The notes under the pieces were generated by a model. The model saw only the letters and a list, made by a program, of their open reading frames with translations, was not told where the DNA came from and made no database searches. DNA of 64,000 bases from Escherichia phage NHEP1, in the sequence record PQ511146.1, one strand, 5' to 3'. The stretch's first letter is position 1, and the number at the start of each line of letters is the position of its first letter. The translations under genes and the position numbers were made by a program. Positions 7,469 through 18,226 of the stretch are shown here, one piece after another.

Positions 7469-8518
7469 ATGAATTTAACACCTCGCAGCACCATGGTACA
7501 CGGCATGAAAGAAAAACAGAACGGCTTCGAACCGATGAGTAATAAAATGTTTGGTATGCCTGGTGGTATTATGGAAACATACAGCTACCCAACGCCAGTT
7601 GTTGACCACGTGCTTTATATTGACGATCTTGAGGATTTGCAGGATCATATGTCCCGTTTGCAAACAATTCGTATGGCACAGCCGGAAGAAAGTATCCGTG
7701 TAATTGTTAACAGCCCTGGTGGTTGCGTCCACATTGCCATGGCGTATTTGCAGGCATTCCGCGAGTCTCAGGCAAGCGTTGTTGTACACGCTGAAGGGAT
7801 GTGCTGCTCAGCAGGAACAATCTTATGGCTGGGTTGCAAAGAACGAACTGTGGCTCCGGACACAGAGTTTATGTTCCACTACTATCAAGGTGGCACCTAT
7901 GGCAACGGTGTGAACATGAATACTCAGGTCAACTACTGGAAGAAACGTTTTGAACGCCTGATCGAAAAATACTACGGTGGGGTTCTGACAGAAGATGAGA
8001 TCGCATCCATCACGGCTGGTGGAGAAGTGTGGTTGGATGGAGAAGAGCTGGCAGCTCGAACTGGTGCTATCATTCTGGACGATGAAAACATTCAGCGCAT
8101 TCAGAATGGGCAGAAACCGAAAAAGCTTTTGGCAAAAAGTGATGAAGAAGGTGTGCTAGGCGAAGCAGGCCTGCCAGAGATTCACCAATGCACATCTCTG
8201 GACGAGCTGGTTCACGCTGTTGAGTCTGCAAAAGCAAATGGTATGAAAGGTGATGTTCACACTGTGTTCCTGAATCTGCAGATGGAGAGTGGTGAGACCG
8301 TTAAGATTGCACTGGGTGAGATTACCTCGGAAGATCTGCAGCGATTCTCTGTGGTAGAGCTTCAGGACATTTTGTCCCAATTGAAAACCACCCTGAACGG
8401 AGGTGAAGAAGTTCAGGTTAAAGATAAGACCCGCAAGCGTCTGGTGGACAATATTATTAAAACAGCAAAAGAGCTCAATGAAAAAATCCTGGGCGCAGGA
8501 ATTATCGAAGAAGCTTAA
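7469..8518 (+). CDS. ClpP-family serine peptidase-like protein with C-terminal extension
   Basis: VNSPGG motif, candidate Ser in MCCSAG and His in MFHYYQGG spaced as in ClpP. Confidence 0.65.
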   Translation: MNLTPRSTMVHGMKEKQNGFEPMSNKMFGMPGGIMETYSYPTPVVDHVLYIDDLEDLQDHMSRLQTIRMAQPEESIRVIVNSPGGCVHIAMAYLQAFRESQASVVVHAEGMCCSAGTILWLGCKERTVAPDTEFMFHYYQGGTYGNGVNMNTQVNYWKKRFERLIEKYYGGVLTEDEIASITAGGEVWLDGEELAARTGAIILDDENIQRIQNGQKPKKLLAKSDEEGVLGEAGLPEIHQCTSLDELVHAVESAKANGMKGDVHTVFLNLQMESGETVKIALGEITSEDLQRFSVVELQDILSQLKTTLNGGEEVQVKDKTRKRLVDNIIKTAKELNEKILGAGIIEEA

Positions 8519-8569: not shown

Positions 8570-9103
8570 ATGACTTGTGCTAGAAAACCTGACGAACAAC
8601 GTAACGCCTATGATGAATATGTGACACCAGAGTGGTGTGCAGAAGGGTTGTATGACCTCATTCCGTTCCCAGAAGATTGGACCTATTTGGAGCCTTGCAG
8701 GAATAGCGCCTCAGGTGTGTTCTACTCCCGTATGCCGTTAGGATCTGCATGGGGAGAAATCCAAGAAGGTGTTGACTATCTGAATACAGAATACAACCAT
8801 GTTGACTGTATTATCACCAACCCGCCGTACAGCCTGGCTCGTGAGTTTGTGGACAAGGCGTTGAAAGATGCCGACGTAGTTATTATGCTTTTGCGTCTTA
8901 ATTTTCTGGAAAGCAAGGCCAGATTTGAATGGTGGCTTGATAATGCCCCTACCACTGTGATCACAATATCTAAGCGTCCATCATTCCAATCGAATGGCAG
9001 AACTGACGGGCAAGCATATGCATATTTTGTGTGGGACAAGAAGAACCGTTTAGACCTACCACCATTTATGTGGTTGGCACCTCCGGAGGCAGATTTGAAA
9101 TGA
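8570..9103 (+). CDS. Small phage Dam-like DNA N6-adenine methyltransferase
   Basis: NPPY catalytic motif (ITNPPYS) and N-terminal W..TPEW-type motif typical of small phage Dam proteins. Confidence 0.65.
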   Translation: MTCARKPDEQRNAYDEYVTPEWCAEGLYDLIPFPEDWTYLEPCRNSASGVFYSRMPLGSAWGEIQEGVDYLNTEYNHVDCIITNPPYSLAREFVDKALKDADVVIMLLRLNFLESKARFEWWLDNAPTTVITISKRPSFQSNGRTDGQAYAYFVWDKKNRLDLPPFMWLAPPEADLK

Positions 9104-10093: not shown

Positions 10094-10327
10094 ATGAAAG
10101 TTAAATTTCTTACAGATTTAGGGTACCCTTCCTTGGTTGACTGCGTTGGTAAAATTGTGGAAGCAAAACGGCTATCTGCAAACGATAATGTTGTCATGGT
10201 TAAGGGAAAAGATTTACTAGCTGCAGGTGCAGAGTCTGGCAGGATCTCTCCTGACTATACGTATTACCTGTCTTTAAGTAATCTACCAGAACGAGGCGGC
10301 AAAGGCCTTGAAGTTGTGGAGGAGTGA
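10094..10327 (+). CDS. Small acidic protein, paralog family A (MKVK...KG.DL.AAGA...VVEE)
   Basis: Shares N-terminal MKVK, KGxDLxAAGA core and acidic C-terminus with 13749, 13966, 15838, 16106 ORFs. Confidence 0.55.
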   Translation: MKVKFLTDLGYPSLVDCVGKIVEAKRLSANDNVVMVKGKDLLAAGAESGRISPDYTYYLSLSNLPERGGKGLEVVEE

Positions 10328-10869
10328 CAGGTATGCTTCTGATTAACTGGGAAGACCTCTATGGGGACAAAGACCCTGTTGCGTTTGTTGATCGTAGGTG
10401 GAGATACACTGAAGAACAACTGGCTGCAAAAAATTTAACTGCAAAACGCAGAAAGATCATCCAGTGCAAGTACAAATACGCACAGTTTGCTGCAAAAGTG
10501 TCTCCACAAATCGAGAGTTTTGTACTTAAATTGTATGACGAGTACCTCAAATTCAAATTGGATTTTGTACAGGTATACCGTGCACAGGTACGTCCAGATA
10601 CCAACATCTGTAGATGGAAGGTTGTTTGTGATGGTAAAGATTTGCCGCTCAGTTTGACAATTGAGTGGCGTTGGGGGTATCATGAGTGCGGTTTGTGTGA
10701 TATTTGGGATGTCATTGTAGATCCTGCTAAGTACCTGAACACAGAGGAGCTGGAATATATCAATAAGGTTATTCTAGATATGTTTTTCAGCTACACCCGT
10801 GAAAACTCTGAGAAAGAACGGGATAATTTTCTTGACACCCTCGGCAACCACCTGCAGTGTACAATTTAA
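10324..10869 (+). CDS. Hypothetical protein
   Basis: Track ORF 181 aa. Confidence 0.55.
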   Translation: MTGMLLINWEDLYGDKDPVAFVDRRWRYTEEQLAAKNLTAKRRKIIQCKYKYAQFAAKVSPQIESFVLKLYDEYLKFKLDFVQVYRAQVRPDTNICRWKVVCDGKDLPLSLTIEWRWGYHECGLCDIWDVIVDPAKYLNTEELEYINKVILDMFFSYTRENSEKERDNFLDTLGNHLQCTI

Positions 10870-10887
10870 CCTACAAAGGAGGAGCCA

Positions 10888-11124
10888 ATGAGTATAGATG
10901 CTGTGCTGATAGGTTACCTGGTAGTAGCTGTTATAACAGCAGTAATCTTGGCAGGTATATGCATCGTGTCTACACGAAGGGTGAAGTTTGATGATTTTAT
11001 CACCATCATCACTGCTGCGCCCTTTTGGCCTGTTGTTATCTTCATCGTAATAATGTGCCTAGTTGATTACCACAAGAATACCCGTAAGGAGAAAAAGGAG
11101 AGTAGGGATGGATACCGCACCTAA
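10888..11124 (+). CDS. Small membrane protein
   Basis: Hydrophobic N-terminal segments; RBS AAGGAGGAG. Confidence 0.5.
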   Translation: MSIDAVLIGYLVVAVITAVILAGICIVSTRRVKFDDFITIITAAPFWPVVIFIVIMCLVDYHKNTRKEKKESRDGYRT

Positions 11125-11239
11125 AACTGTTTATACTGTTCTTAAAGAGATTGCGTTCTACGCAGATCTTAGCCGGGCACCTTTATGGGAAAAGAATATG
11201 TATTTAAAATGGTGCGTGAAATTAGAGGGGGCCTTCTAA
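11108..11239 (+). CDS. Small ORF (43 aa)
   Basis: AAGGAGAG RBS 7 nt upstream; TAATG overlap with next small ORF. Confidence 0.3.
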   Translation: MDTAPKTVYTVLKEIAFYADLSRAPLWEKNMYLKWCVKLEGAF

Positions 11240-11358
11240 TGTTTCAAGCCATGTTTATTGAAATGCTCTCTGGGGTATTACTGCTGGTAGCCATTTTGGG
11301 TGGCGCGGCACTGATGTATAATTATCTTGAAAAAGGAGACAGTAATGACAAAAAATAA
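11239..11358 (+). CDS. Hydrophobic micro-protein (39 aa)
   Basis: MFQAMFIEMLSGVLLLVAILGGAALMYNYLEKGDSNDKK; overlaps next gene by 14 nt; junction sequence repeated at 18635-18659. Confidence 0.35.
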   Translation: MFQAMFIEMLSGVLLLVAILGGAALMYNYLEKGDSNDKK

Positions 11359-11530
11359 ATCCTTAGAACAGGCTGAAAACCTTCTCCACGAGCTGGTAAA
11401 GGAGTGGAAAGTTGAATACTCAGATTTTAATGCAAGAGAGGGGGAAGATTATTGGCCTACGGAGCGCTCAGAGGGAGAGTGGTATCAAGATTTCATAGAA
11501 TGGCTATATCAGACGTGCGATGAGGGGTGA
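11345..11530 (+). CDS. Hypothetical protein
   Basis: ATG 11345 with AAAGGAG RBS; track start 11327 is TTG. Confidence 0.45.
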   Translation: MTKNKSLEQAENLLHELVKEWKVEYSDFNAREGEDYWPTERSEGEWYQDFIEWLYQTCDEG

Positions 11531-11988
11531 CGATGTTTGTTAAATATGTAAAAACGTGCCTCAACAACCTTGGTAGAGAGCATTGGTACACACTGCTTGA
11601 AAAAGGAGAAATTTTAACAAAATCTGGAAAGATAACTTTGATACCTTTGGACGATAAAGACCCGTCACTACTTGTCATAGATGATTACGTTACAGGTGTG
11701 TCGTACGAGGTATCTGTGGAGAGGTTAATACGCAGATCTGGAGGTCCTTATGACCGAAGAGAGTATGTTTTCGATTCCGTTACAGAGAAGGAAGATCCGT
11801 CCCTGATGTTTAGGATGGTAATCAGGGATATGAAATCATCTATAAATAGGATCGTAAAGGACATTAAGGAGCCTTTTAGGGTAAAAGTTAAGAAGTTTTT
11901 TGATTCTAAGATCAACATACTCGCCGTTGTGCTGGGCGTAATTCAACTTCTGTTAATTTTGCACTATTTTGAACTGTTGTTTAAGTAA
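11527..11988 (+). CDS. Hypothetical protein with C-terminal hydrophobic segment
   Basis: Track ORF 153 aa. Confidence 0.5.
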   Translation: MTMFVKYVKTCLNNLGREHWYTLLEKGEILTKSGKITLIPLDDKDPSLLVIDDYVTGVSYEVSVERLIRRSGGPYDRREYVFDSVTEKEDPSLMFRMVIRDMKSSINRIVKDIKEPFRVKVKKFFDSKINILAVVLGVIQLLLILHYFELLFK

Positions 11989-12048
11989 TGTGCATTATGG
12001 CACAAAGGATGTGCCATAATTAAATAAACTAAGAAAGAGGTAGAGAGA

Positions 12049-12396
12049 ATGTCAAAGATTAAATCGATATTAATGTGGGTGTCTGTTGTAGCTTTTGTAG
12101 GATACTGGACTTGGGAAACTGAATTAAAAGATATTGGGTATACCAGCCTTGAGAGTAAGGCGTGCATTGGCATAACCGATGCATTCAGGCAGAATGCTAT
12201 GGATCACGAATGTGTCGATGCAGATATAGATGAGAAACTGTCTAAGGACAAAGATTTTTACCATGGTCATGCCTTGCTTGATAGTGGTGACACTGTAGAA
12301 TTCTGGTCGTGGTTCCGTGAAGATGGGACAATAAAGACAGCAGTAAAGATTTCCAACAAAGAGTTGATGCTGTTGCAGCAGAAGGAGGTGCAATGA
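12049..12396 (+). CDS. Hypothetical protein with N-terminal signal/TM segment
   Basis: Track ORF 115 aa; AAAGAGG RBS. Confidence 0.5.
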   Translation: MSKIKSILMWVSVVAFVGYWTWETELKDIGYTSLESKACIGITDAFRQNAMDHECVDADIDEKLSKDKDFYHGHALLDSGDTVEFWSWFREDGTIKTAVKISNKELMLLQQKEVQ

Positions 12397-12680
12397 TCTG
12401 GATATCCTACGCTGATGGCACCATGCTGTATACTGCAGGTACTAGATATGAAGTTAAGGAGGACGATAAAAAATTTATCGTAAAAACATTTGACAAGGAC
12501 GACAACCTTTTGCTAGAATTGACTTACAAGGTTGGGGATGTATCTAGCATCCAATTGGATTGCGGTCATAAAGATAACCCGCTCAAGAAACCTGGGGTAG
12601 GTAAAGCTTCAGAAGAACGCCTGTCTCGTATTGCAGAAAGCGTTTCTGCACAAAAATCTAAAAAGGGGACTAGAAAATGA
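12393..12680 (+). CDS. Hypothetical protein
   Basis: Track ORF 95 aa. Confidence 0.5.
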   Translation: MIWISYADGTMLYTAGTRYEVKEDDKKFIVKTFDKDDNLLLELTYKVGDVSSIQLDCGHKDNPLKKPGVGKASEERLSRIAESVSAQKSKKGTRK

Positions 12681-12871
12681 AAAACTTACATTTTAACACT
12701 TATTACTACAACACTTTGAATGATTTGTATTATATTGTTCGAAGTAAAAATCCTGAAACAGTCCTATTCTGCCGCGAACCTTTCAAAGGAGAGGAAGTGG
12801 AGTCTGAGATGAATGTTAGCCAGATTACCTCTTTGTTGCTCTCAGGTGCAATGGAAGAAGCAATATTCTAA
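12677..12871 (+). CDS. Hypothetical protein
   Basis: Track ORF 64 aa. Confidence 0.4.
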   Translation: MKNLHFNTYYYNTLNDLYYIVRSKNPETVLFCREPFKGEEVESEMNVSQITSLLLSGAMEEAIF

Positions 12872-12889
12872 ACCAGGCGGGAGGGTTTT

Positions 12890-13075
12890 ATGAAGCACTA
12901 TTGTCTGTCTGGTAGGATGGGGGTGGATTGTGATTGGGTTTTCTTAAAACTTGTCAGCGTTCGAGAGTCCATTCCAGAGGAAGAGCAAGAAAGTGAGCTG
13001 ATGTCATGGATCAACTATTACGGCAACACTTTCCGGTATGTCAAAATGGAAGAGCTGCCAAACGAGGATGATTGA
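12890..13075 (+). CDS. Hypothetical protein
   Basis: Track ORF 61 aa. Confidence 0.4.
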   Translation: MKHYCLSGRMGVDCDWVFLKLVSVRESIPEEEQESELMSWINYYGNTFRYVKMEELPNEDD

Positions 13076-13170
13076 TTATGGTAGCATCAATATTAACGTT
13101 TATGGGTGGCGTGGCATTCGGATTCATTCTTTGTCTGTTTATAGTTATTATGGCTATGCGAGGCTGAATT

Positions 13171-13455
13171 ATGAAACTGTTCGAGTGGTTTAAAAAGTTT
13201 AAATACCAGGCTGTTGCTGTATCGAAATGGACCGTCCGCTGGGTGGACGATGATGGAACACAAATTCCTGGTGATCAGGATACCGGATACTGGGTTATGA
13301 TGGAGAACGGATTTGGGAAAAGGAAGTTTAAATGTGCTGGCGCTCCTACTCTTTTAAATGTTAGGAATGTACCAGGGTACAGCACTATGGTTGTTTGGGA
13401 GCTATCCGGTGTTCCTCCTGCCAATGTGCAATATCTGCCAAACCCAGAAAAATAA
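13171..13455 (+). CDS. Hypothetical protein
   Basis: Track ORF 94 aa. Confidence 0.5.
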   Translation: MKLFEWFKKFKYQAVAVSKWTVRWVDDDGTQIPGDQDTGYWVMMENGFGKRKFKCAGAPTLLNVRNVPGYSTMVVWELSGVPPANVQYLPNPEK

Positions 13456-13467
13456 AAGGAGAAGATA

Positions 13468-13752
13468 ATGAGCAATGGTGTCAGCAACAGTGCTGCAGAG
13501 TTTAAAGTGATCTGTAAAGGAACTTATTGGATAGTGAAACAGAAGGTGTACCTATTCGGTTTCATACCGTTTTGGCAGAGATTTTGCTGGGGAGCTAACG
13601 AGCTTAAGAGATACGCCACCAAGGCTATGGCACTTATTGGTATAGCTGAATACATTGCTGCCAGGGACAGAGAGGGGAAAACTTGTTACTACACTGCTGA
13701 CGAGATTCGTAACAGTGTTTACGTTCCACAACCGCCTGAGGGAGACCGTTGA
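13468..13752 (+). CDS. Hypothetical protein
   Basis: Track ORF 94 aa with AAGGAG RBS. Confidence 0.5.
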   Translation: MSNGVSNSAAEFKVICKGTYWIVKQKVYLFGFIPFWQRFCWGANELKRYATKAMALIGIAEYIAARDREGKTCYYTADEIRNSVYVPQPPEGDR

Positions 13753-13976
13753 TGAAAGTTAAAGTTTTAGATTCAAGCTTCTATATTGGTCAGGAGCCCT
13801 TAGTGGGGAAAGTGTTTACCGCTATCCCTAACGAAGATTATCCTGACCTTTTAAAAATAAAAGGTGCAGATCTTATTGCCGCTGGTGCATCCCAGGAATG
13901 CTTTGACAGTCAGTGGACCTACAACTTTGCCCTAGGAGAGGATGTGGAGATAGTGGAGGACGATCATGAAGGTTAA
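13749..13976 (+). CDS. Small acidic protein, paralog family A
   Basis: MMKVKVLDSSFYIGQ...IKGADLIAAGA motif. Confidence 0.55.
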   Translation: MMKVKVLDSSFYIGQEPLVGKVFTAIPNEDYPDLLKIKGADLIAAGASQECFDSQWTYNFALGEDVEIVEDDHEG

Positions 13977-14220
13977 AATTCTTGACTCTAACGTCTACTT
14001 GGGACAATCCTTCCTGAAAGGAAAGGTCGTACCTGCTGTATACTTCGAAGGGTTGCCGTGGGACGATCCTGTGCGGCAAAATCACAGCCATGTAGGCCAC
14101 AATGTGGTGTTCATCTTGGGATCAGACCTGATCGCGGCTGGTGCCCCGGAATATTATTTCGGAGAGGACTTGTATTATGCCTTTGGGGCAGGGTCAGATG
14201 CGGATATTTTAGAGCTGTGA
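13966..14220 (+). CDS. Small acidic protein, paralog family A
   Basis: MKVKILDSNVYLGQ...GSDLIAAGA motif; tandem to 13749. Confidence 0.55.
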   Translation: MKVKILDSNVYLGQSFLKGKVVPAVYFEGLPWDDPVRQNHSHVGHNVVFILGSDLIAAGAPEYYFGEDLYYAFGAGSDADILEL

Positions 14221-14232
14221 TGGGGAACTATT

Positions 14233-14631
14233 GTGAAAAATAAACTGTTCAAAGTTACAATGAAAATTCGCGGAGCTTGGAGCGTAAAGCAAGGGCGTAT
14301 CCCCGAATTTGAGAAAGACTTCTACGTAGTCTCCACCTCGGAGGAGGCTGCATGCTGGCAGGCTGGCTATGCCTATGCAAGAACCTGGTACGAAGGATAC
14401 CAGACTGGTGGCTATGACGGAGAAATTATCAGCAAGGGTGTAGAAGAAATTAATGTGTTGACAAGTGAAAAAGTTTTTGTTATAGTGCATCCAGATTCCA
14501 GAGTGAAGCATTACTGGAATGCCAGAACAAAAACTTGGACACCGTTTGCAGATTCTGCTACACCACTTTTAAGCCAGAAAGCTCTTGACTCTGCTCCAAG
14601 CTACGGGGTTGTTGAAGAAAAGCTAAACTGA
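14233..14631 (+). CDS. Hypothetical protein, paralog family B
   Basis: C-terminal half similar to 16438..16833 (HP.S...YYW.....W TP motif). Confidence 0.55.
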   Translation: MKNKLFKVTMKIRGAWSVKQGRIPEFEKDFYVVSTSEEAACWQAGYAYARTWYEGYQTGGYDGEIISKGVEEINVLTSEKVFVIVHPDSRVKHYWNARTKTWTPFADSATPLLSQKALDSAPSYGVVEEKLN

Positions 14632-14648
14632 AACAGTGAGGTACCAAC

Positions 14649-14939
14649 ATGATGGATTTAGTTCTGGACACTGATAACACCGGAGCGTTTAAAAAGGATG
14701 GTGCAATAAGCATTGACCAATTCTTCCCTGCCAAGATTGACTCAAAATGGACCTACAAGTTTGACGGTGAGATCTTCGCAAATGATGAGAAGGTCGTGGA
14801 TGCTGTAGCCATTTTAAACGCTTTAGGGTATGACCCTGTGAACTCATTGATCAAGGATCCTGTTGAGTTTGCAGAGTATGTTCGTAAAATGGCAGATCTT
14901 GCAGTAGATATTTTAAAAACTATCGACAACAAGTTGTAA
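14649..14939 (+). CDS. Hypothetical protein
   Basis: Track ORF 96 aa. Confidence 0.5.
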   Translation: MMDLVLDTDNTGAFKKDGAISIDQFFPAKIDSKWTYKFDGEIFANDEKVVDAVAILNALGYDPVNSLIKDPVEFAEYVRKMADLAVDILKTIDNKL

Positions 14940-14945
14940 AAACTG

Positions 14946-15001
14946 TTGACACAACGCTTCAGATTTAGTATCATTGTTTTCAAAGAGGGTTGGTTCCCTC
15001 T
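14946..15001 (+). promoter_or_regulatory. Sigma70-like promoter (TTGACA-N17-TATCAT) followed by 5'UTR stem-loop AGAGGG/CCCTCT
   Basis: Hexamers at 14946-14951 and 14969-14974; hairpin 14984-15001; precedes HPF-like gene. Confidence 0.5.
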
Positions 15002-15020
15002 TCTTTAAAAGGAACACATT

Positions 15021-15338
15021 ATGCAAATTGAAATCACTGGCAACGTAGAGATCACTGAAGGTATGGTGTCTTTCATTTCCAACAAAATGTCCAAGCTGGA
15101 GCGTTTGCACCCCTCTGCCAACTATGCACGTGTGAGTGTAAAAGTTGAAAATGATCACCAGGAAGTTATGGCTTTCATTTTTGACAATTCTGGGAAAGAA
15201 GTTATCGCCAAAGCTAAAGGCAGCGATGCTTACGAGGCAACTGACCGTATGGTGGATGTTGCAGCACGCCAGTTGGCTAAATGCGGTGGAAAGAAAGGTA
15301 AGGGAAAAGGTAAAGTAAAGATTGACTTTTTAGATTGA
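15021..15338 (+). CDS. Ribosome hibernation promoting factor / RaiA (S30Ae family) homolog
   Basis: MQIEITGNVEITEG...KLERL...VKVE...ARQLAK pattern matches bacterial HPF/YfiA; Lys/Gly-rich tail. Confidence 0.8.
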   Translation: MQIEITGNVEITEGMVSFISNKMSKLERLHPSANYARVSVKVENDHQEVMAFIFDNSGKEVIAKAKGSDAYEATDRMVDVAARQLAKCGGKKGKGKGKVKIDFLD

Positions 15339-15475
15339 GGTGCTACAATGGGCATGATTAAGAAATTAGTCCCAAATGTAGAGATTGCATGCTTTGAAAT
15401 TATGTTTGCAATCGCAGTTGTAGTTAATGTGTTAGGTTACGGCTATTAATATCAAATAATTGAGGAGACCTCTAA

Positions 15476-15745
15476 ATGAAAATTAAATTATTCCAAACTG
15501 AGCTGGCAGACAAAAACTGTGGACTGGTTGAAGGCATGATCGTTGAAGCACAACCAGTTGACTACATGAAGGTGGTTCGTGATGCCCTGGGTGAAGGTTT
15601 TGATCTGATGGAGCCAGCTCTGCGAGAAGATGTCATCGAGATGGCTAAAAAGCACACACCGGAAGGTTTGGTAGTGTTTGTTGCACCAGGTAACGGGGAA
15701 GAGTTGATTGTAACTCCGGATGTGTATGAGGTTGTAGAAGAGTAA
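15476..15745 (+). CDS. Small acidic protein (C-terminal YEVVEE), paralog subfamily
   Basis: MKIKLF start and C-terminal VYEVVEE shared with 16913 ORF. Confidence 0.5.
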   Translation: MKIKLFQTELADKNCGLVEGMIVEAQPVDYMKVVRDALGEGFDLMEPALREDVIEMAKKHTPEGLVVFVAPGNGEELIVTPDVYEVVEE

Positions 15746-15837
15746 TCCTGCTTGGGTTAGCATACTTTCCTCTACAAGAAAGGTTTGTAATTATTTGTGG
15801 GAAAGGAATCCCCATCTCTTACCAGAGGTGATACTAT

Positions 15838-16101
15838 ATGATTGTTTATTTTAAAACTTCAGGTGGATACCCTGATTCTCAAAGCTTGATTGGAAAAACG
15901 TGCACAGCATACTCACCTCTTGATGAGGAGGTAAGCAATATCCTACGAGATATGTATCGGATTGATCCCCAAGAAGCTTTTGATCAAAACCTTGTATTTG
16001 TCAAGGGATCAGACATAAAGTCTTTGGGGGCATTCCCTGAAGCAGATGATGATGCTGTTTATTCGTTTATGACACCTTTTGAAGCTATGATTGTGGGGTG
16101 A
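15838..16101 (+). CDS. Small acidic protein, paralog family A-like
   Basis: VFVKGSDIKSLGA core motif. Confidence 0.5.
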   Translation: MIVYFKTSGGYPDSQSLIGKTCTAYSPLDEEVSNILRDMYRIDPQEAFDQNLVFVKGSDIKSLGAFPEADDDAVYSFMTPFEAMIVG

Positions 16102-16105
16102 GAAT

Positions 16106-16438
16106 ATGAAAGTACGCTTTATTGGTGAAACAATTCCTGTGCATCTCCGGTCTCCTGAAGACTCTGCAGATCTTGCATCTCAAAAGGCGAGAGGGTATGA
16201 TAAGAAAGTGATCTCAAGCAATGTAGAGCTTGAGGCCACCAGTCTACCTGACCCAGCTGCATTCTTCAATCATTATGGCTACTATTTTAGCAATCTGATG
16301 AATATTGGTGAGCTTGTGTTTATTAGTGGTGGAGAGATAGTTAGCAAGCTTGGTGGAGATCCGGATATCTTTCATGAAACCTGCCCTTTTGCATTTGTGG
16401 TGGGTTCAGATGTGGAAGTTATTGAGGAGGTTCGGTAA
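16106..16438 (+). CDS. Small acidic protein, paralog family A-like
   Basis: ATG 16106 (MKVRF) after GGGGTGAG; C-terminal VEVIEEVR. Confidence 0.5.
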   Translation: MKVRFIGETIPVHLRSPEDSADLASQKARGYDKKVISSNVELEATSLPDPAAFFNHYGYYFSNLMNIGELVFISGGEIVSKLGGDPDIFHETCPFAFVVGSDVEVIEEVR

Positions 16439-16833
16439 TGGTAAGTCTATACCGTGTTGAGTATAGCTCGGATACTGTATACAATGTAAGAAGCAAAGAT
16501 CGCAGTGACAGAGTGCAAGAAATGTATGTTCTTGCAGACAGTCCGTTATCTGCAGCGTTCAAGGCAGGAGCTCTTGCATCTCGTTGGAAATTTGAGGGTG
16601 GATCTTTCTATGAAGAAACCCTTGAAGATTCTGTTGTTATTTCTTCTGTAGAGGTTTCAACCGACTACGAAGGGAAAAAGTTCGTAATGCGGCACCCACA
16701 CAGCAACATTGCGTACTACTGGGATGTTCTGAACAATGAGTGGACCCCTGATCTTCAGAAGGCCACTGTTCTAACCCCATTCCTGGCAGATAAGTTTCCA
16801 CCAGAAGGTAATTTATCTGCACTGTTTCAGTAA
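16438..16833 (+). CDS. Hypothetical protein, paralog family B
   Basis: Similar to 14233..14631 over C-terminal half. Confidence 0.55.
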   Translation: MVSLYRVEYSSDTVYNVRSKDRSDRVQEMYVLADSPLSAAFKAGALASRWKFEGGSFYEETLEDSVVISSVEVSTDYEGKKFVMRHPHSNIAYYWDVLNNEWTPDLQKATVLTPFLADKFPPEGNLSALFQ

Positions 16834-16842
16834 TTTTATGCC

Positions 16843-16880
16843 ACACAGGTGTTGACAACACCAACCCTGTGTGCAATAAT
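16843..16880 (+). promoter_or_regulatory. Promoter TTGACA-N17-AATAAT embedded in a 12-bp-arm palindrome
   Basis: CACACAGGTGTTG...CAACCCTGTGTG inverted repeat overlapping the -35. Confidence 0.4.
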
Positions 16881-16912
16881 ACCTTCATCTTAACAAGATA
16901 GGAGACCGATTG

Positions 16913-17170
16913 ATGAAGATTAAATTGAAAAACCTTGAAACGGCAGAGATTCAGGAAGGTATTGATTTCCGTTCTAAAGATGGAGACATCCTGGAGGCGA
17001 ATGTCCCGACATATAAGTTGATTAAAGGTTTTGGCAACGTTCCGGAGGAGGATATTACAGACATTCTTATGATGTTGATCCTTGACGGGACTGTGTTTGT
17101 AGGTGAAGGTGAGAACGCTATTGCAATCCCGAGCCATTTTTATGAAGTAGTTGACGAAGAGGTGCTGTAA
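16913..17170 (+). CDS. Small acidic protein (C-terminal YEVVDEEVL)
   Basis: ATG 16913 after AGGAG RBS. Confidence 0.5.
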   Translation: MKIKLKNLETAEIQEGIDFRSKDGDILEANVPTYKLIKGFGNVPEEDITDILMMLILDGTVFVGEGENAIAIPSHFYEVVDEEVL

Positions 17171-17521
17171 ATGAAAGTAGAGATCACAGGTTTTGATATG
17201 AATGCGGTTCCGGAAGATATTTTAGCTAAACTCCCGGAAGGTTTTGGTAACGGTGTTGTGGTTGATGCTGTTCCTCCTACCAAAGACATCCTGCTGCAGT
17301 ATGGTGTGGCAGAGGAAGATGTTGATAAAGTTCTTACAATGATGGCAATCGACCGTGTTGTCGTTGTTAAAGGTCTTGAAGGTTTTGATAACGATCCTCT
17401 GATTATTCGTGGTGATGACTATCATGTCATCGACAACGAAGGCCAAGAGTTCTACGAACCTTCTGCTGAAGATGTTCTTAACTTACTACTGGAAGCAGGC
17501 ACCGAAGAGGAGGAAGAATAA
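17171..17521 (+). CDS. Small acidic protein with poly-Glu C-terminus
   Basis: Track ORF 116 aa ending EEEEE. Confidence 0.5.
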   Translation: MKVEITGFDMNAVPEDILAKLPEGFGNGVVVDAVPPTKDILLQYGVAEEDVDKVLTMMAIDRVVVVKGLEGFDNDPLIIRGDDYHVIDNEGQEFYEPSAEDVLNLLLEAGTEEEEE

Positions 17522-17850
17522 TGAAAATTGATCCGTTACTGAAGGCTCGTGCAGAAAAAGCATACACTATCAAGCTGACCTCTCTGGTCCCTACTTGTCA
17601 TCCGGATGTAGGTTGGCCTGAAGGCTTGGTAGAGGGGACTGTAACAGCTGCATACCTTCCTAACATCAAATACCTCATGGAGATCTTGGAGATGGATGAG
17701 GAAACGGCAGAACAGTTCCAGTTAGACATGAAGCAAAGTGGGACTCTGGTTATTCACGGGTGGTATAATACTAAAGATGCAGAAGATCCCCTGGTAACTT
17801 CTAATCTGGCATATGAGATCTTAGGGCCTTTGAACTTGGGGGAAGACTAA
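17521..17850 (+). CDS. Hypothetical protein
   Basis: Track ORF 109 aa, ATGA overlap. Confidence 0.5.
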   Translation: MKIDPLLKARAEKAYTIKLTSLVPTCHPDVGWPEGLVEGTVTAAYLPNIKYLMEILEMDEETAEQFQLDMKQSGTLVIHGWYNTKDAEDPLVTSNLAYEILGPLNLGED

Positions 17851-18137
17851 TGAAAGATTTGGTTAAGATCAAGATTAAAGACACCAATGGAGAACTCAGC
17901 CATTTTGGAATTAACGATGGTGACGAGCTGATCGCCCACCTGCCTACCAAGGAAGTTGTAAGCAAAGCGGTTGCCGGAGAAGAAGATGCAATGCAGGCTG
18001 CAGGTGTGGATGAAAGCTATGTAGCAATGTGTATGTGCCGAGATCAGGTTGTTCTGTATAAAGCGTATCGACCAAATGGAGCACCTGAGTGGCTTGTTTT
18101 CCGACCCGAAGGGTATGAAATTTTAGAGACGCTATGA
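17850..18137 (+). CDS. Hypothetical protein
   Basis: Track ORF 95 aa. Confidence 0.5.
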   Translation: MKDLVKIKIKDTNGELSHFGINDGDELIAHLPTKEVVSKAVAGEEDAMQAAGVDESYVAMCMCRDQVVLYKAYRPNGAPEWLVFRPEGYEILETL

Positions 18138-18226
18138 TAAATCTTGCCAAGGTTGCAACGGCACTGTTAATTATTTGCTGGATAGTGACCTTGGCACTAT
18201 GTCTTGTATTTCATTAAGGGGGCTAT

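Follow-up and report, generated by a model that had tools for sequence, protein, structure and literature searches.

In a stretch of 64,000 nucleotides from Escherichia phage NHEP1 (record PQ511146.1; hereafter the window), two small genes, here called B1 (14233..14631) and B2 (16438..16833), lie among a series of short genes for acidic proteins, here called the A genes. This arrangement raises the question of whether B1 and B2 are paralogues and, if so, whether each was copied alone or as part of a module that included its acidic neighbors. The comparisons described below point to an ancient duplication that likely copied at least one A gene together with B. Region 13000-18200 of the window matched 120 phage records by megablast, with Escherichia phage vB_EcoM-ECP26 closest (98.2%, full length); FV3, rV5 and the Vequintavirus isolates of the BASEL collection came next (91-98%). 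Because of these matches at 91-98%, the window is assigned to the genus Vequintavirus, as a segment of the genome of an rV5/FV3-like myovirus (rV5-like hereafter).

Paralogy and coding status of B1 and B2

B1 and B2 were similar over nearly their full length. BLASTP comparison of the two proteins alone gave 33 identities in 119 positions (28%; E = 9e-10), and the pair was one of only two that stood out clearly in an all-versus-all comparison of 25 local open reading frames (ORFs; E = 8e-8). The similarity extended from residue 5 to approximately residue 119, beyond the C-terminal region. Both proteins also matched positions 1-131 of the PHROG 7379 profile, through residues 2-132 of B1 (E = 1.8e-73) and residues 1-131 of B2 (E = 4.2e-66). 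The shared C-terminal motif (HPxS...YW......WTP) reads HPDSRVKHYWNARTKTWTP in B1 and HPHSNIAYYWDVLNNEWTP in B2, and F82, H86, P87, S89, W95 and W102 were invariant once two distant homologues (P0007 and P0008, described below) had been added. Across four lineages, 14 columns of the family alignment are invariant, with a C-terminal core of F-x3-H-P-x-S-x5-W-x6-W. The initial annotation of this DNA had proposed that 14233..14631 and 16438..16833 are a paralog pair with a common C-terminal region of the form HP.S...YYW...W TP. The pairing was borne out by the BLASTP and end-to-end PHROG matches, and the motif is present and corresponds to the invariant core of the family. Collectively, these data indicate that B1 and B2 are genuine, ancient paralogues.

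More than 100 GenBank genomes of rV5-like phages carry annotated coding sequences for B1 and B2, labelled as hypothetical proteins. With phage JeffSchatz as the reference (95-98% nucleotide identity in B1 and B2), B1 carried 2 non-synonymous and 7 synonymous changes, a ratio of non-synonymous to synonymous substitution rates (dN/dS) of 0.074, and B2 carried 2 and 18, respectively, for a dN/dS of 0.027, the lowest in the block. B1 and B2 are real protein-coding genes under strong purifying selection. An identity of 28% is low enough that the similarity might be attributed to chance or composition, or the ORFs dismissed as not being genes. This reading was refuted by the E value, the end-to-end PHROG match, the 14 invariant columns in four lineages, dN/dS values far below 1 and conservation in more than 115 genomes, and its probability is negligible.

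The GTG start of B1 is preceded, 6 nucleotides upstream, by a Shine-Dalgarno-like GGGGA and is followed by a first beta-strand that is conserved across lineages (LFKVT/LYRVE/IYQIE/LYKIT). The BASEL annotations begin B1 at an internal ATG (14260 rather than 14233, for a product of 123 amino acids; L007, 1460-1831), and the first beta-strand is lost in the shorter JeffSchatz annotation. Because of the ribosome-binding site and the conserved strand, the GTG start at 14233 is favored over the internal ATG. The ATG of B2 shares a nucleotide with the TAA stop codon of 16106..16438, the gene before it (TAATG), and lies 7 nucleotides downstream of GAGGAGG; these two genes appear to be translationally coupled.

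Acidic gene families and cassette order

The small acidic genes, named here by their first coordinate, had initially been described as a single family interleaved with the B pair. The interleaving was confirmed, but all-versus-all phmmer and hhalign comparisons split the genes into two subfamilies, A-I (10094, 13749, 13966, 15838 and 16106) and A-II (15476, 16910, 17171, 17521 and 17850). Homology between A-I and A-II was not demonstrated (hhalign, 17%), the resemblance being weak and confined to the N terminus. The possibility that B is itself a diverged member of the acidic genes was rejected (hhalign, 0.07% against A-I and 0.14% against A-II). A-I proteins had no match in the sequence libraries scanned (Pfam, NCBIfam, PADLOC and PDB sequences), and a homologue search with an A-I profile retrieved rV5-like contigs alone.

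Four of the five A-I genes form two pairs, located immediately 5' of B1 (13749 and 13966) and of B2 (15838 and 16106). Each B gene thus ends a co-oriented cassette with the order A-I, A-I, B (cassette 1 with B1 and cassette 2 with B2), and promoters lie just past each cassette. When gene order was shuffled, the placement of two A-I genes before each B gene had a p value of ~7e-5, or of ~0.004 with the A-I pairs treated as units. This recurrence supports the earlier description of B1 and B2 as occupying equivalent positions relative to the A genes.

Three of the A-I proteins (13966, 15838 and 16106) also have, after strand 2 and ahead of the VFVKG strand, an insertion (P-x-DP...) that is missing from 10094 and 13749. 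Because this insertion cuts across the grouping of 13749 with 13966 by similarity, it hints at gene conversion within cassette 1.

Evidence for a probable duplication of a two-gene cassette

A dot-plot of 13.7-14.7 kb against 15.8-16.9 kb, the check suggested with the initial annotation, was run and revealed collinearity at the protein level and no significant similarity at the nucleotide level. Two protein segments fell on one diagonal, in the same order and orientation, with an offset of ~2200-2230 nucleotides. The first (13975-14214 versus 16205-16426) corresponds to the A-I genes 13966 and 16106, with 30% identity over 82 amino acids; the second (14224-14580 versus 16426-16794) corresponds to the B genes, with 28% identity over 126 amino acids. 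The divergence of the A pair and the B pair is therefore comparable (30% and 28% identity). Outside its own cassette, the best partner of 16106 was 13966 (hhalign, 89.5%; E = 2e-6). Because of the protein collinearity and this hhalign match, a two-gene cassette of A-I and B looks co-duplicated, and an ancient segmental duplication of at least these two genes is likely. The initial proposal of a duplicated multi-gene module, as opposed to single-gene duplications, is thus supported in part: it probably holds for 13966 and B1 with 16106 and B2, and was not borne out for the third gene of each cassette (13749 and 15838).

We propose that one old segmental duplication copied at least an A-I gene together with B, making 13966 and B1 the counterparts of 16106 and B2; this account is probably correct. 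The copied DNA would then have diverged to saturation, and a further A-I duplication or gene conversion would have given rise to 13749 and 13966. The two cassette copies would have become separated by the three genes that now lie between them (gene X, a ribosome hibernation factor homologue and an A-II gene; Table 1), and the sister lineages described below would afterwards each have retained one B copy.

Several observations weigh against this proposal. A nucleotide dot-plot and repeat search of the two segments gave no significant match, the best on the diagonal being 14175-14204 versus 16387-16416 (77% over 30 nucleotides; E = 0.17). Such dissimilarity is expected if the duplication is ancient, and the proposed event is compatible with it. 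Among the A-I proteins, 13749 was linked by hhalign to 13966 (98%) and to 10094 (97%) and reached 44% with 15838, so that the upstream-most genes of the cassettes are not mutual best partners; 15838 and 16106 were the weakest A-I pair (21%). A neighbor-joining tree of A-I recovered the five orthogroups with 90-100% bootstrap support, and its deep nodes received 18-60%, too little to settle the order in which the groups branched. With the 44% value for 13749 and 15838 and these deep nodes, the one-to-one pairing and congruent phylogeny of a three-gene module were not found. Finally, a four-taxon tree of B without an outgroup fits a duplication before all three lineages as well as a later one with faster evolution of B2.

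These same features could also be explained by independent single-gene events, in which B was duplicated alone and landed beside an existing A-I pair while A-I genes spread by tandem duplication. The apparent module would then be a coincidence or the product of a common insertion hot-spot, as the poorly supported A-I tree, the mutual closeness of 13749 and 13966, the position of 15838 and 16106 as the least similar A-I pair and the lack of DNA-level collinearity would allow. However, the genes directly 5' of B1 and B2 are the best cross-cassette matches and lie on the B1/B2 diagonal, the A and B pairs have diverged alike, and the order A-I, A-I, B occurs twice, which had a p value of ~0.004 even with A-I pairs as units. 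Independent events are thus unlikely, and duplication of a two-gene cassette remains our preferred reading.

The locus in sister lineages

Related loci were found in two sister lineages. The first is represented by L002, a 124-kb contig from an NCBI assembly that carries orthologues of all five A-I groups, X, the hibernation factor homologue and B2. Its B2 orthologue follows the orthologues of 15838 and 16106, downstream of the 15476 orthologue, and an unrelated gene, Z, occupies the B1 slot between the A-I pair and X. Right after the B2 orthologue, L002 has an extra gene for a 98-amino-acid protein (10467-10763; PF27050, Phage_P22_Y8K6) that is absent from the window. In the second lineage, comprising L005 and four IMG/VR contigs (L012-L015), a B1-type gene is the sole B gene and lies upstream of the 15476 orthologue; in the L005 type it is preceded by Z and another gene, W, and not by A-I genes. 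Neither cassette 2 nor a hibernation factor homologue was found in the 10-kb flanks of this B1-type gene in any of the five contigs. At 13532-14644 and 1657-2556 in L005, the accessory block also contains a TnpB/IS605 OrfB-like gene (PF01385, PF07282) and a putative homing endonuclease of the T5orf172/MUG113 type. A more divergent Vequintavirus-like contig, L011, has retained cassettes 1 and 2 in unchanged order.

The presence of Z in the B1 slot of L002 and of Z and W before the L005-type gene counts against co-duplication of A-I and B. The adjacency of A-I and B1 in Vequintavirus could be secondary, for example through loss of Z, and a B gene without A-I neighbors in one lineage, alongside an A-I pair without B1 in the other, would be consistent with the duplication of B alone. 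Because adjacency of A-I and B is not universal in the relatives, we are only moderately confident that a module was duplicated.

Phage genomes are often mosaic, and each sister lineage has one B type (B2-type in L002; B1-type in L005 and L012-L015). The two cassettes might therefore be orthologous alleles of different phage lineages that were joined by recombination during co-infection, and so be paralogues in appearance only. This explanation is improbable, since the two types hold conserved and distinct positions, with B1-type genes upstream and B2-type genes downstream of the 15476 orthologue, and since the A-I pair of cassette 1 is still found in L002; two ancestral loci with differential loss fit these arrangements better. 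Because of these different positions, the B1-type and B2-type genes are taken to be true paralogues, not alleles, of which different lineages have lost different copies.

Size and distribution of the B family

HMM (hidden Markov model) scans of the window found exactly two B copies. When B1 and B2 were compared by tblastn with 50,697 phage records, matches were obtained in Vequintavirus alone (~116-118 records), and B2 was intact, with at least 95% amino acid identity, in 118 of the 118 matching records. A profile search of 5.8 billion proteins returned 6 hits (clusters), all of them B1, B2 or fragments. When 1.84 billion representatives were scanned with HMMER without filters, just two further full-length relatives emerged, of which P0007 is B2-type (38.5% identity to B2 and 26.8% to B1) and P0008 is B1-type (36.7% to B1 and 25.4% to B2). 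With P0008 as the tblastn query, two places per genome were detected and no other credible match; at E ≤ 1, the phage records outside Vequintavirus yielded one chance match in Gokushovirinae. These searches indicate that B is a very small ORFan family (PHROG 7379) with two members per genome, restricted to rV5-like coliphages, that is, to Vequintavirus and the two sister lineages from assemblies and metagenomes.

Two other hits from the representative search, P0010 and P0011, were rejected as spurious, being long repeat proteins in which a short YYW-type stretch had been matched. Likewise rejected was a note in the rV5 GenBank record that ORF142, the rV5 counterpart of B1, is "similar to Listeria phage A118 hypothetical protein", as B1 had no match outside Vequintavirus at E ≤ 1e-3. 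In 18 GenBank records titled "Campylobacter phage" (host C. jejuni), the B1 and B2 proteins have ~97-99% identity to their counterparts in rV5-like phages of E. coli, and the attribution of these records to C. jejuni looks doubtful.

Dispensability and virion status

Phage EduardKellenberger (L006, MZ501061), a viable phage isolated on E. coli K-12, lacks the DNA corresponding to 10730..14545 of the window. Lost with this DNA are the A-I pair of cassette 1 and 104 codons from the start of B1. The metagenomic variants P0003-P0005 are B1 genes that have been truncated or fused. In the mass spectrometry table published for rV5, ORF133 and ORF152 are flagged as virion proteins, and ORF142 (B1) and ORF149 (B2) are not. 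The EduardKellenberger deletion, the metagenomic variants and the absence of a virion flag support an accessory role for the B genes.

The EduardKellenberger deletion is natural, spans 3.8 kb and has a 15-nucleotide overlap at its junction, which joins the gene at 10324..10869 to the final 28 codons of B1 in a chimera annotated as a "putative glycosidase". ORF133 (orthologue of 11527..11988) and ORF152 (orthologue of 17521..17850, an acidic A-II member), listed as structural virion proteins on mass spectrometry evidence, are nevertheless encoded inside a block of small early-type genes, and some members of the acidic families may be packaged proteins.

Neighboring genes

B1 and B2 belong to a plus-strand run of small genes located 3' of a ClpP-like protease gene (7469..8518) and a methyltransferase gene (8570..9103), with a strand switch near 20 kb as judged by GC skew. 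A tRNA scan of the window found none. The gene order is A-I, A-I, B1, X, hibernation factor homologue (HPF), A-II, A-I, A-I, B2, followed by four A-II genes (Table 1).

Table 1. Coordinates of the B genes, the A-I genes and the features around them in the window
Feature	Coordinates	Strand	Description
A-I	10094..10327	+	77 amino acids; fifth, solitary member; only A-I gene kept in all three lineages
A-I	13749..13976	+	75 amino acids; phrog_5009; opens cassette 1; most similar to 13966 and 10094
A-I	13966..14220	+	84 amino acids; phrog_5009; directly upstream of B1
B1	14233..14631	+	132 amino acids; GTG start; isoelectric point (pI) 7.8; rV5 ORF142/rv5_gp137; last gene of cassette 1
Genes between cassettes	14649..15745	+	X, HPF homologue and A-II member 15476..15745
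X	14649..14939	+	phrog_12029
Sigma-70-like promoter	14946..14974	+	11/12 match; annotated rV5 P144; 3' of cassette 1 and X
Ribosome hibernation factor (HPF/RaiA) homologue	15021..15338	+	PF02482 (Ribosomal_S30AE), E = 1.1e-12
A-II member	15476..15745	+	directly before cassette 2
A-I	15838..16101	+	87 amino acids; phrog_13920, weak phrog_5009 match; first gene of cassette 2
A-I	16106..16438	+	110 amino acids from ATG 16106; phrog_13661; directly upstream of B2
B2	16438..16833	+	131 amino acids; ATG start; pI 4.85; rV5 ORF149/rv5_gp144; last gene of cassette 2
Sigma-70-like promoter	16852..16880	+	11/12 match, extended -10; annotated rV5 P150; right after B2

The HPF homologue at 15021..15338 has its own sigma-70-like promoter (14946-14974, rV5 P144). 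Its ortholog in L002 is 64% identical in amino acid sequence, and none was found within 10 kb of the L005 B gene. In ECP26 and several other GenBank records, the A-II gene 15476..15745 is labelled as a second "sigma 54 modulation factor". A Pfam scan of this gene gave no match, leaving 15021..15338 as the only genuine HPF/RaiA homologue, and the label is likely an annotation spill-over.

Gene X contains a stretch, at residues ~29-48 (IDSKWTYKFDGEIF), that is similar to the C terminus of the A-I protein 13749 (FDSQWTYNFALGEDVEIVE; BLASTP, E = 0.05), and a 27-nucleotide DNA repeat (78%) links 13903-13929 with 14737-14763, the latter inside X. The stretch 14737-14763 may be the remnant of an A-I gene formerly located 3' of B1; a search with the A-I HMM did not detect the resembling stretch in X.

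Predicted structure and function of the B proteins

Models of the B proteins were built with AlphaFold2. With a 2-sequence alignment the mean predicted local distance difference test score (pLDDT) was 50 and the model unusable, whereas a 6-sequence alignment gave a usable model of B2 (pLDDT, 74.6; predicted template modeling score, 0.69). In this model an N-terminal beta-beta-alpha-beta subdomain is followed by a beta-rich C-terminal subdomain that carries the invariant HPxS/W core. When the model was compared with the PDB by Foldseek, the ribosomal protein eL20 ranked first without reaching significance (E ≥ 0.15; TM-scores, 0.35-0.45). The B2 model bears a weak resemblance to the eL20/LX/PurS beta-beta-alpha-beta fold. 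Against BFVD, Foldseek returned the paralogue from phage V18 and, as the second-best match, the protein 4MG_194, which is considered below. The four B family members have pI values of 7.8, 4.85, 5.1 and 6.8 and net charges from +1 to -6, a split that is held across lineages, with B1-type proteins near neutral and B2-type proteins acidic. The invariant basic residues of the family are one Arg and one His.

Taken together, B1 and B2 are plausibly non-structural, conditionally useful accessory proteins that act in host take-over or interaction by binding a host macromolecule and that have become sub-functionalised, a proposal whose prospects we regard as evenly balanced. The annotation and literature searches weigh against it. 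B1, B2, P0007 and P0008 matched no Pfam family at E ≤ 1 and no profile of NCBIfam or of PADLOC, which covers defence-system families, and comparison of B proteins with PDB sequences, as single sequences or profiles, yielded nothing below E = 0.3. The literature searched contained no expression or interaction data for the B genes, and made no mention of these genes, of rV5 paralogues or of transcriptomics of the region.

A more specific reading would make B1 and B2 RNA- or ribosome-binding factors of an eL20/LX-like type, which remodel host ribosomes together with the neighboring phage HPF. This is very unlikely. The structural match is not significant and the confidence of the model is moderate; the beta-beta-alpha-beta fold is common to PurS, PaaB and many small phage proteins; and the sequence searches of Pfam (E ≤ 1) and PDB (E 0.3) were likewise negative. 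B1 and B2 did not match Ribosomal_S30AE (PF02482), the family matched by their neighbor 15021..15338 alone. Moreover, eL20 is strongly basic and is not known to have a counterpart in the bacterial ribosome. Neutral to acidic pI values (4.85-7.8) and a scarcity of conserved basic residues in B argue against an eL20-like role in rRNA binding. In an extended version, B would represent a new class of phage factors that adopt an eL20/LX-like fold and act on host translation with the phage HPF, the A-I proteins would be its cognate adaptors and the duplication would have given two specificities. This version is more doubtful still, and we would be surprised if it held. We therefore retain the broader proposal of conditionally useful accessory proteins.

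Comparison with known systems

Since both B1 and B2 match the full 131-position profile of PHROG 7379, a public resource already groups them in one family. The PHROG 7379 entry gives no function and says nothing of intragenomic paralogy or cassette context. The paper that described the rV5 genome lists ORF142 and ORF149 without homologue or function and never mentions paralogues or duplication.

Among structurally characterized proteins, eL20 (L18a), its archaeal form LX and PurS have beta-beta-alpha-beta folds; they show no sequence relationship to B, the Foldseek match is not significant, and no counterpart was identified in them for the invariant C-terminal HPxS...W...W core of B. Another candidate is 4MG_194, a hypothetical protein of 185 amino acids from Escherichia phage 4MG (genus Seunavirus, Vequintavirinae; L017, 17357-17914), which was matched in BFVD with E = 2.5e-3 and TMq 0.58. 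Independently, when six-frame ORFs covering two thirds of the 4MG genome were searched with the B HMM, it was the top though weak match (E = 2e-3; 13 bits), with an alignment that covers beta2-alpha-beta3. Its surroundings are those of the B genes, namely a block of small, co-oriented genes located 3' of the ClpP and methyltransferase genes. In contrast to B, it is longer, has a basic C-terminal tail and does not conserve the C-terminal motif, and the HMMER scan of 1.84 billion proteins did not retrieve it at E ≤ 1e-3. Thus, 4MG_194 is at best a remote relative of the N-terminal domain of B from a different Vequintavirinae genus.

If the proposed history is true, it shows how rV5-like phages, which are widely employed in biocontrol of E. 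coli O157, enlarge their accessory region through duplication of small gene cassettes and reduce it through losses in individual lineages. Within this region, ORF149 (B2) is the most tightly constrained gene of the block and is universally retained, and would be a reasonable first target for functional study.

In large lytic phages, small early or accessory genes occur as arrays of paralogues, such as the internal-protein and modA/modB genes of T4. The B genes resemble such arrays in being small, lineage-restricted and non-essential, in lying in promoter-rich early regions, in local duplication and in loss from some isolates. They differ in that what was duplicated seems to be a two-gene cassette, with 1.2 kb of other genes between its copies. 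Phage genomes commonly evolve by duplicating and losing small accessory genes, and the B pair, neither a new kind of system nor a new mechanism, is a new, modest example of this ordinary process.

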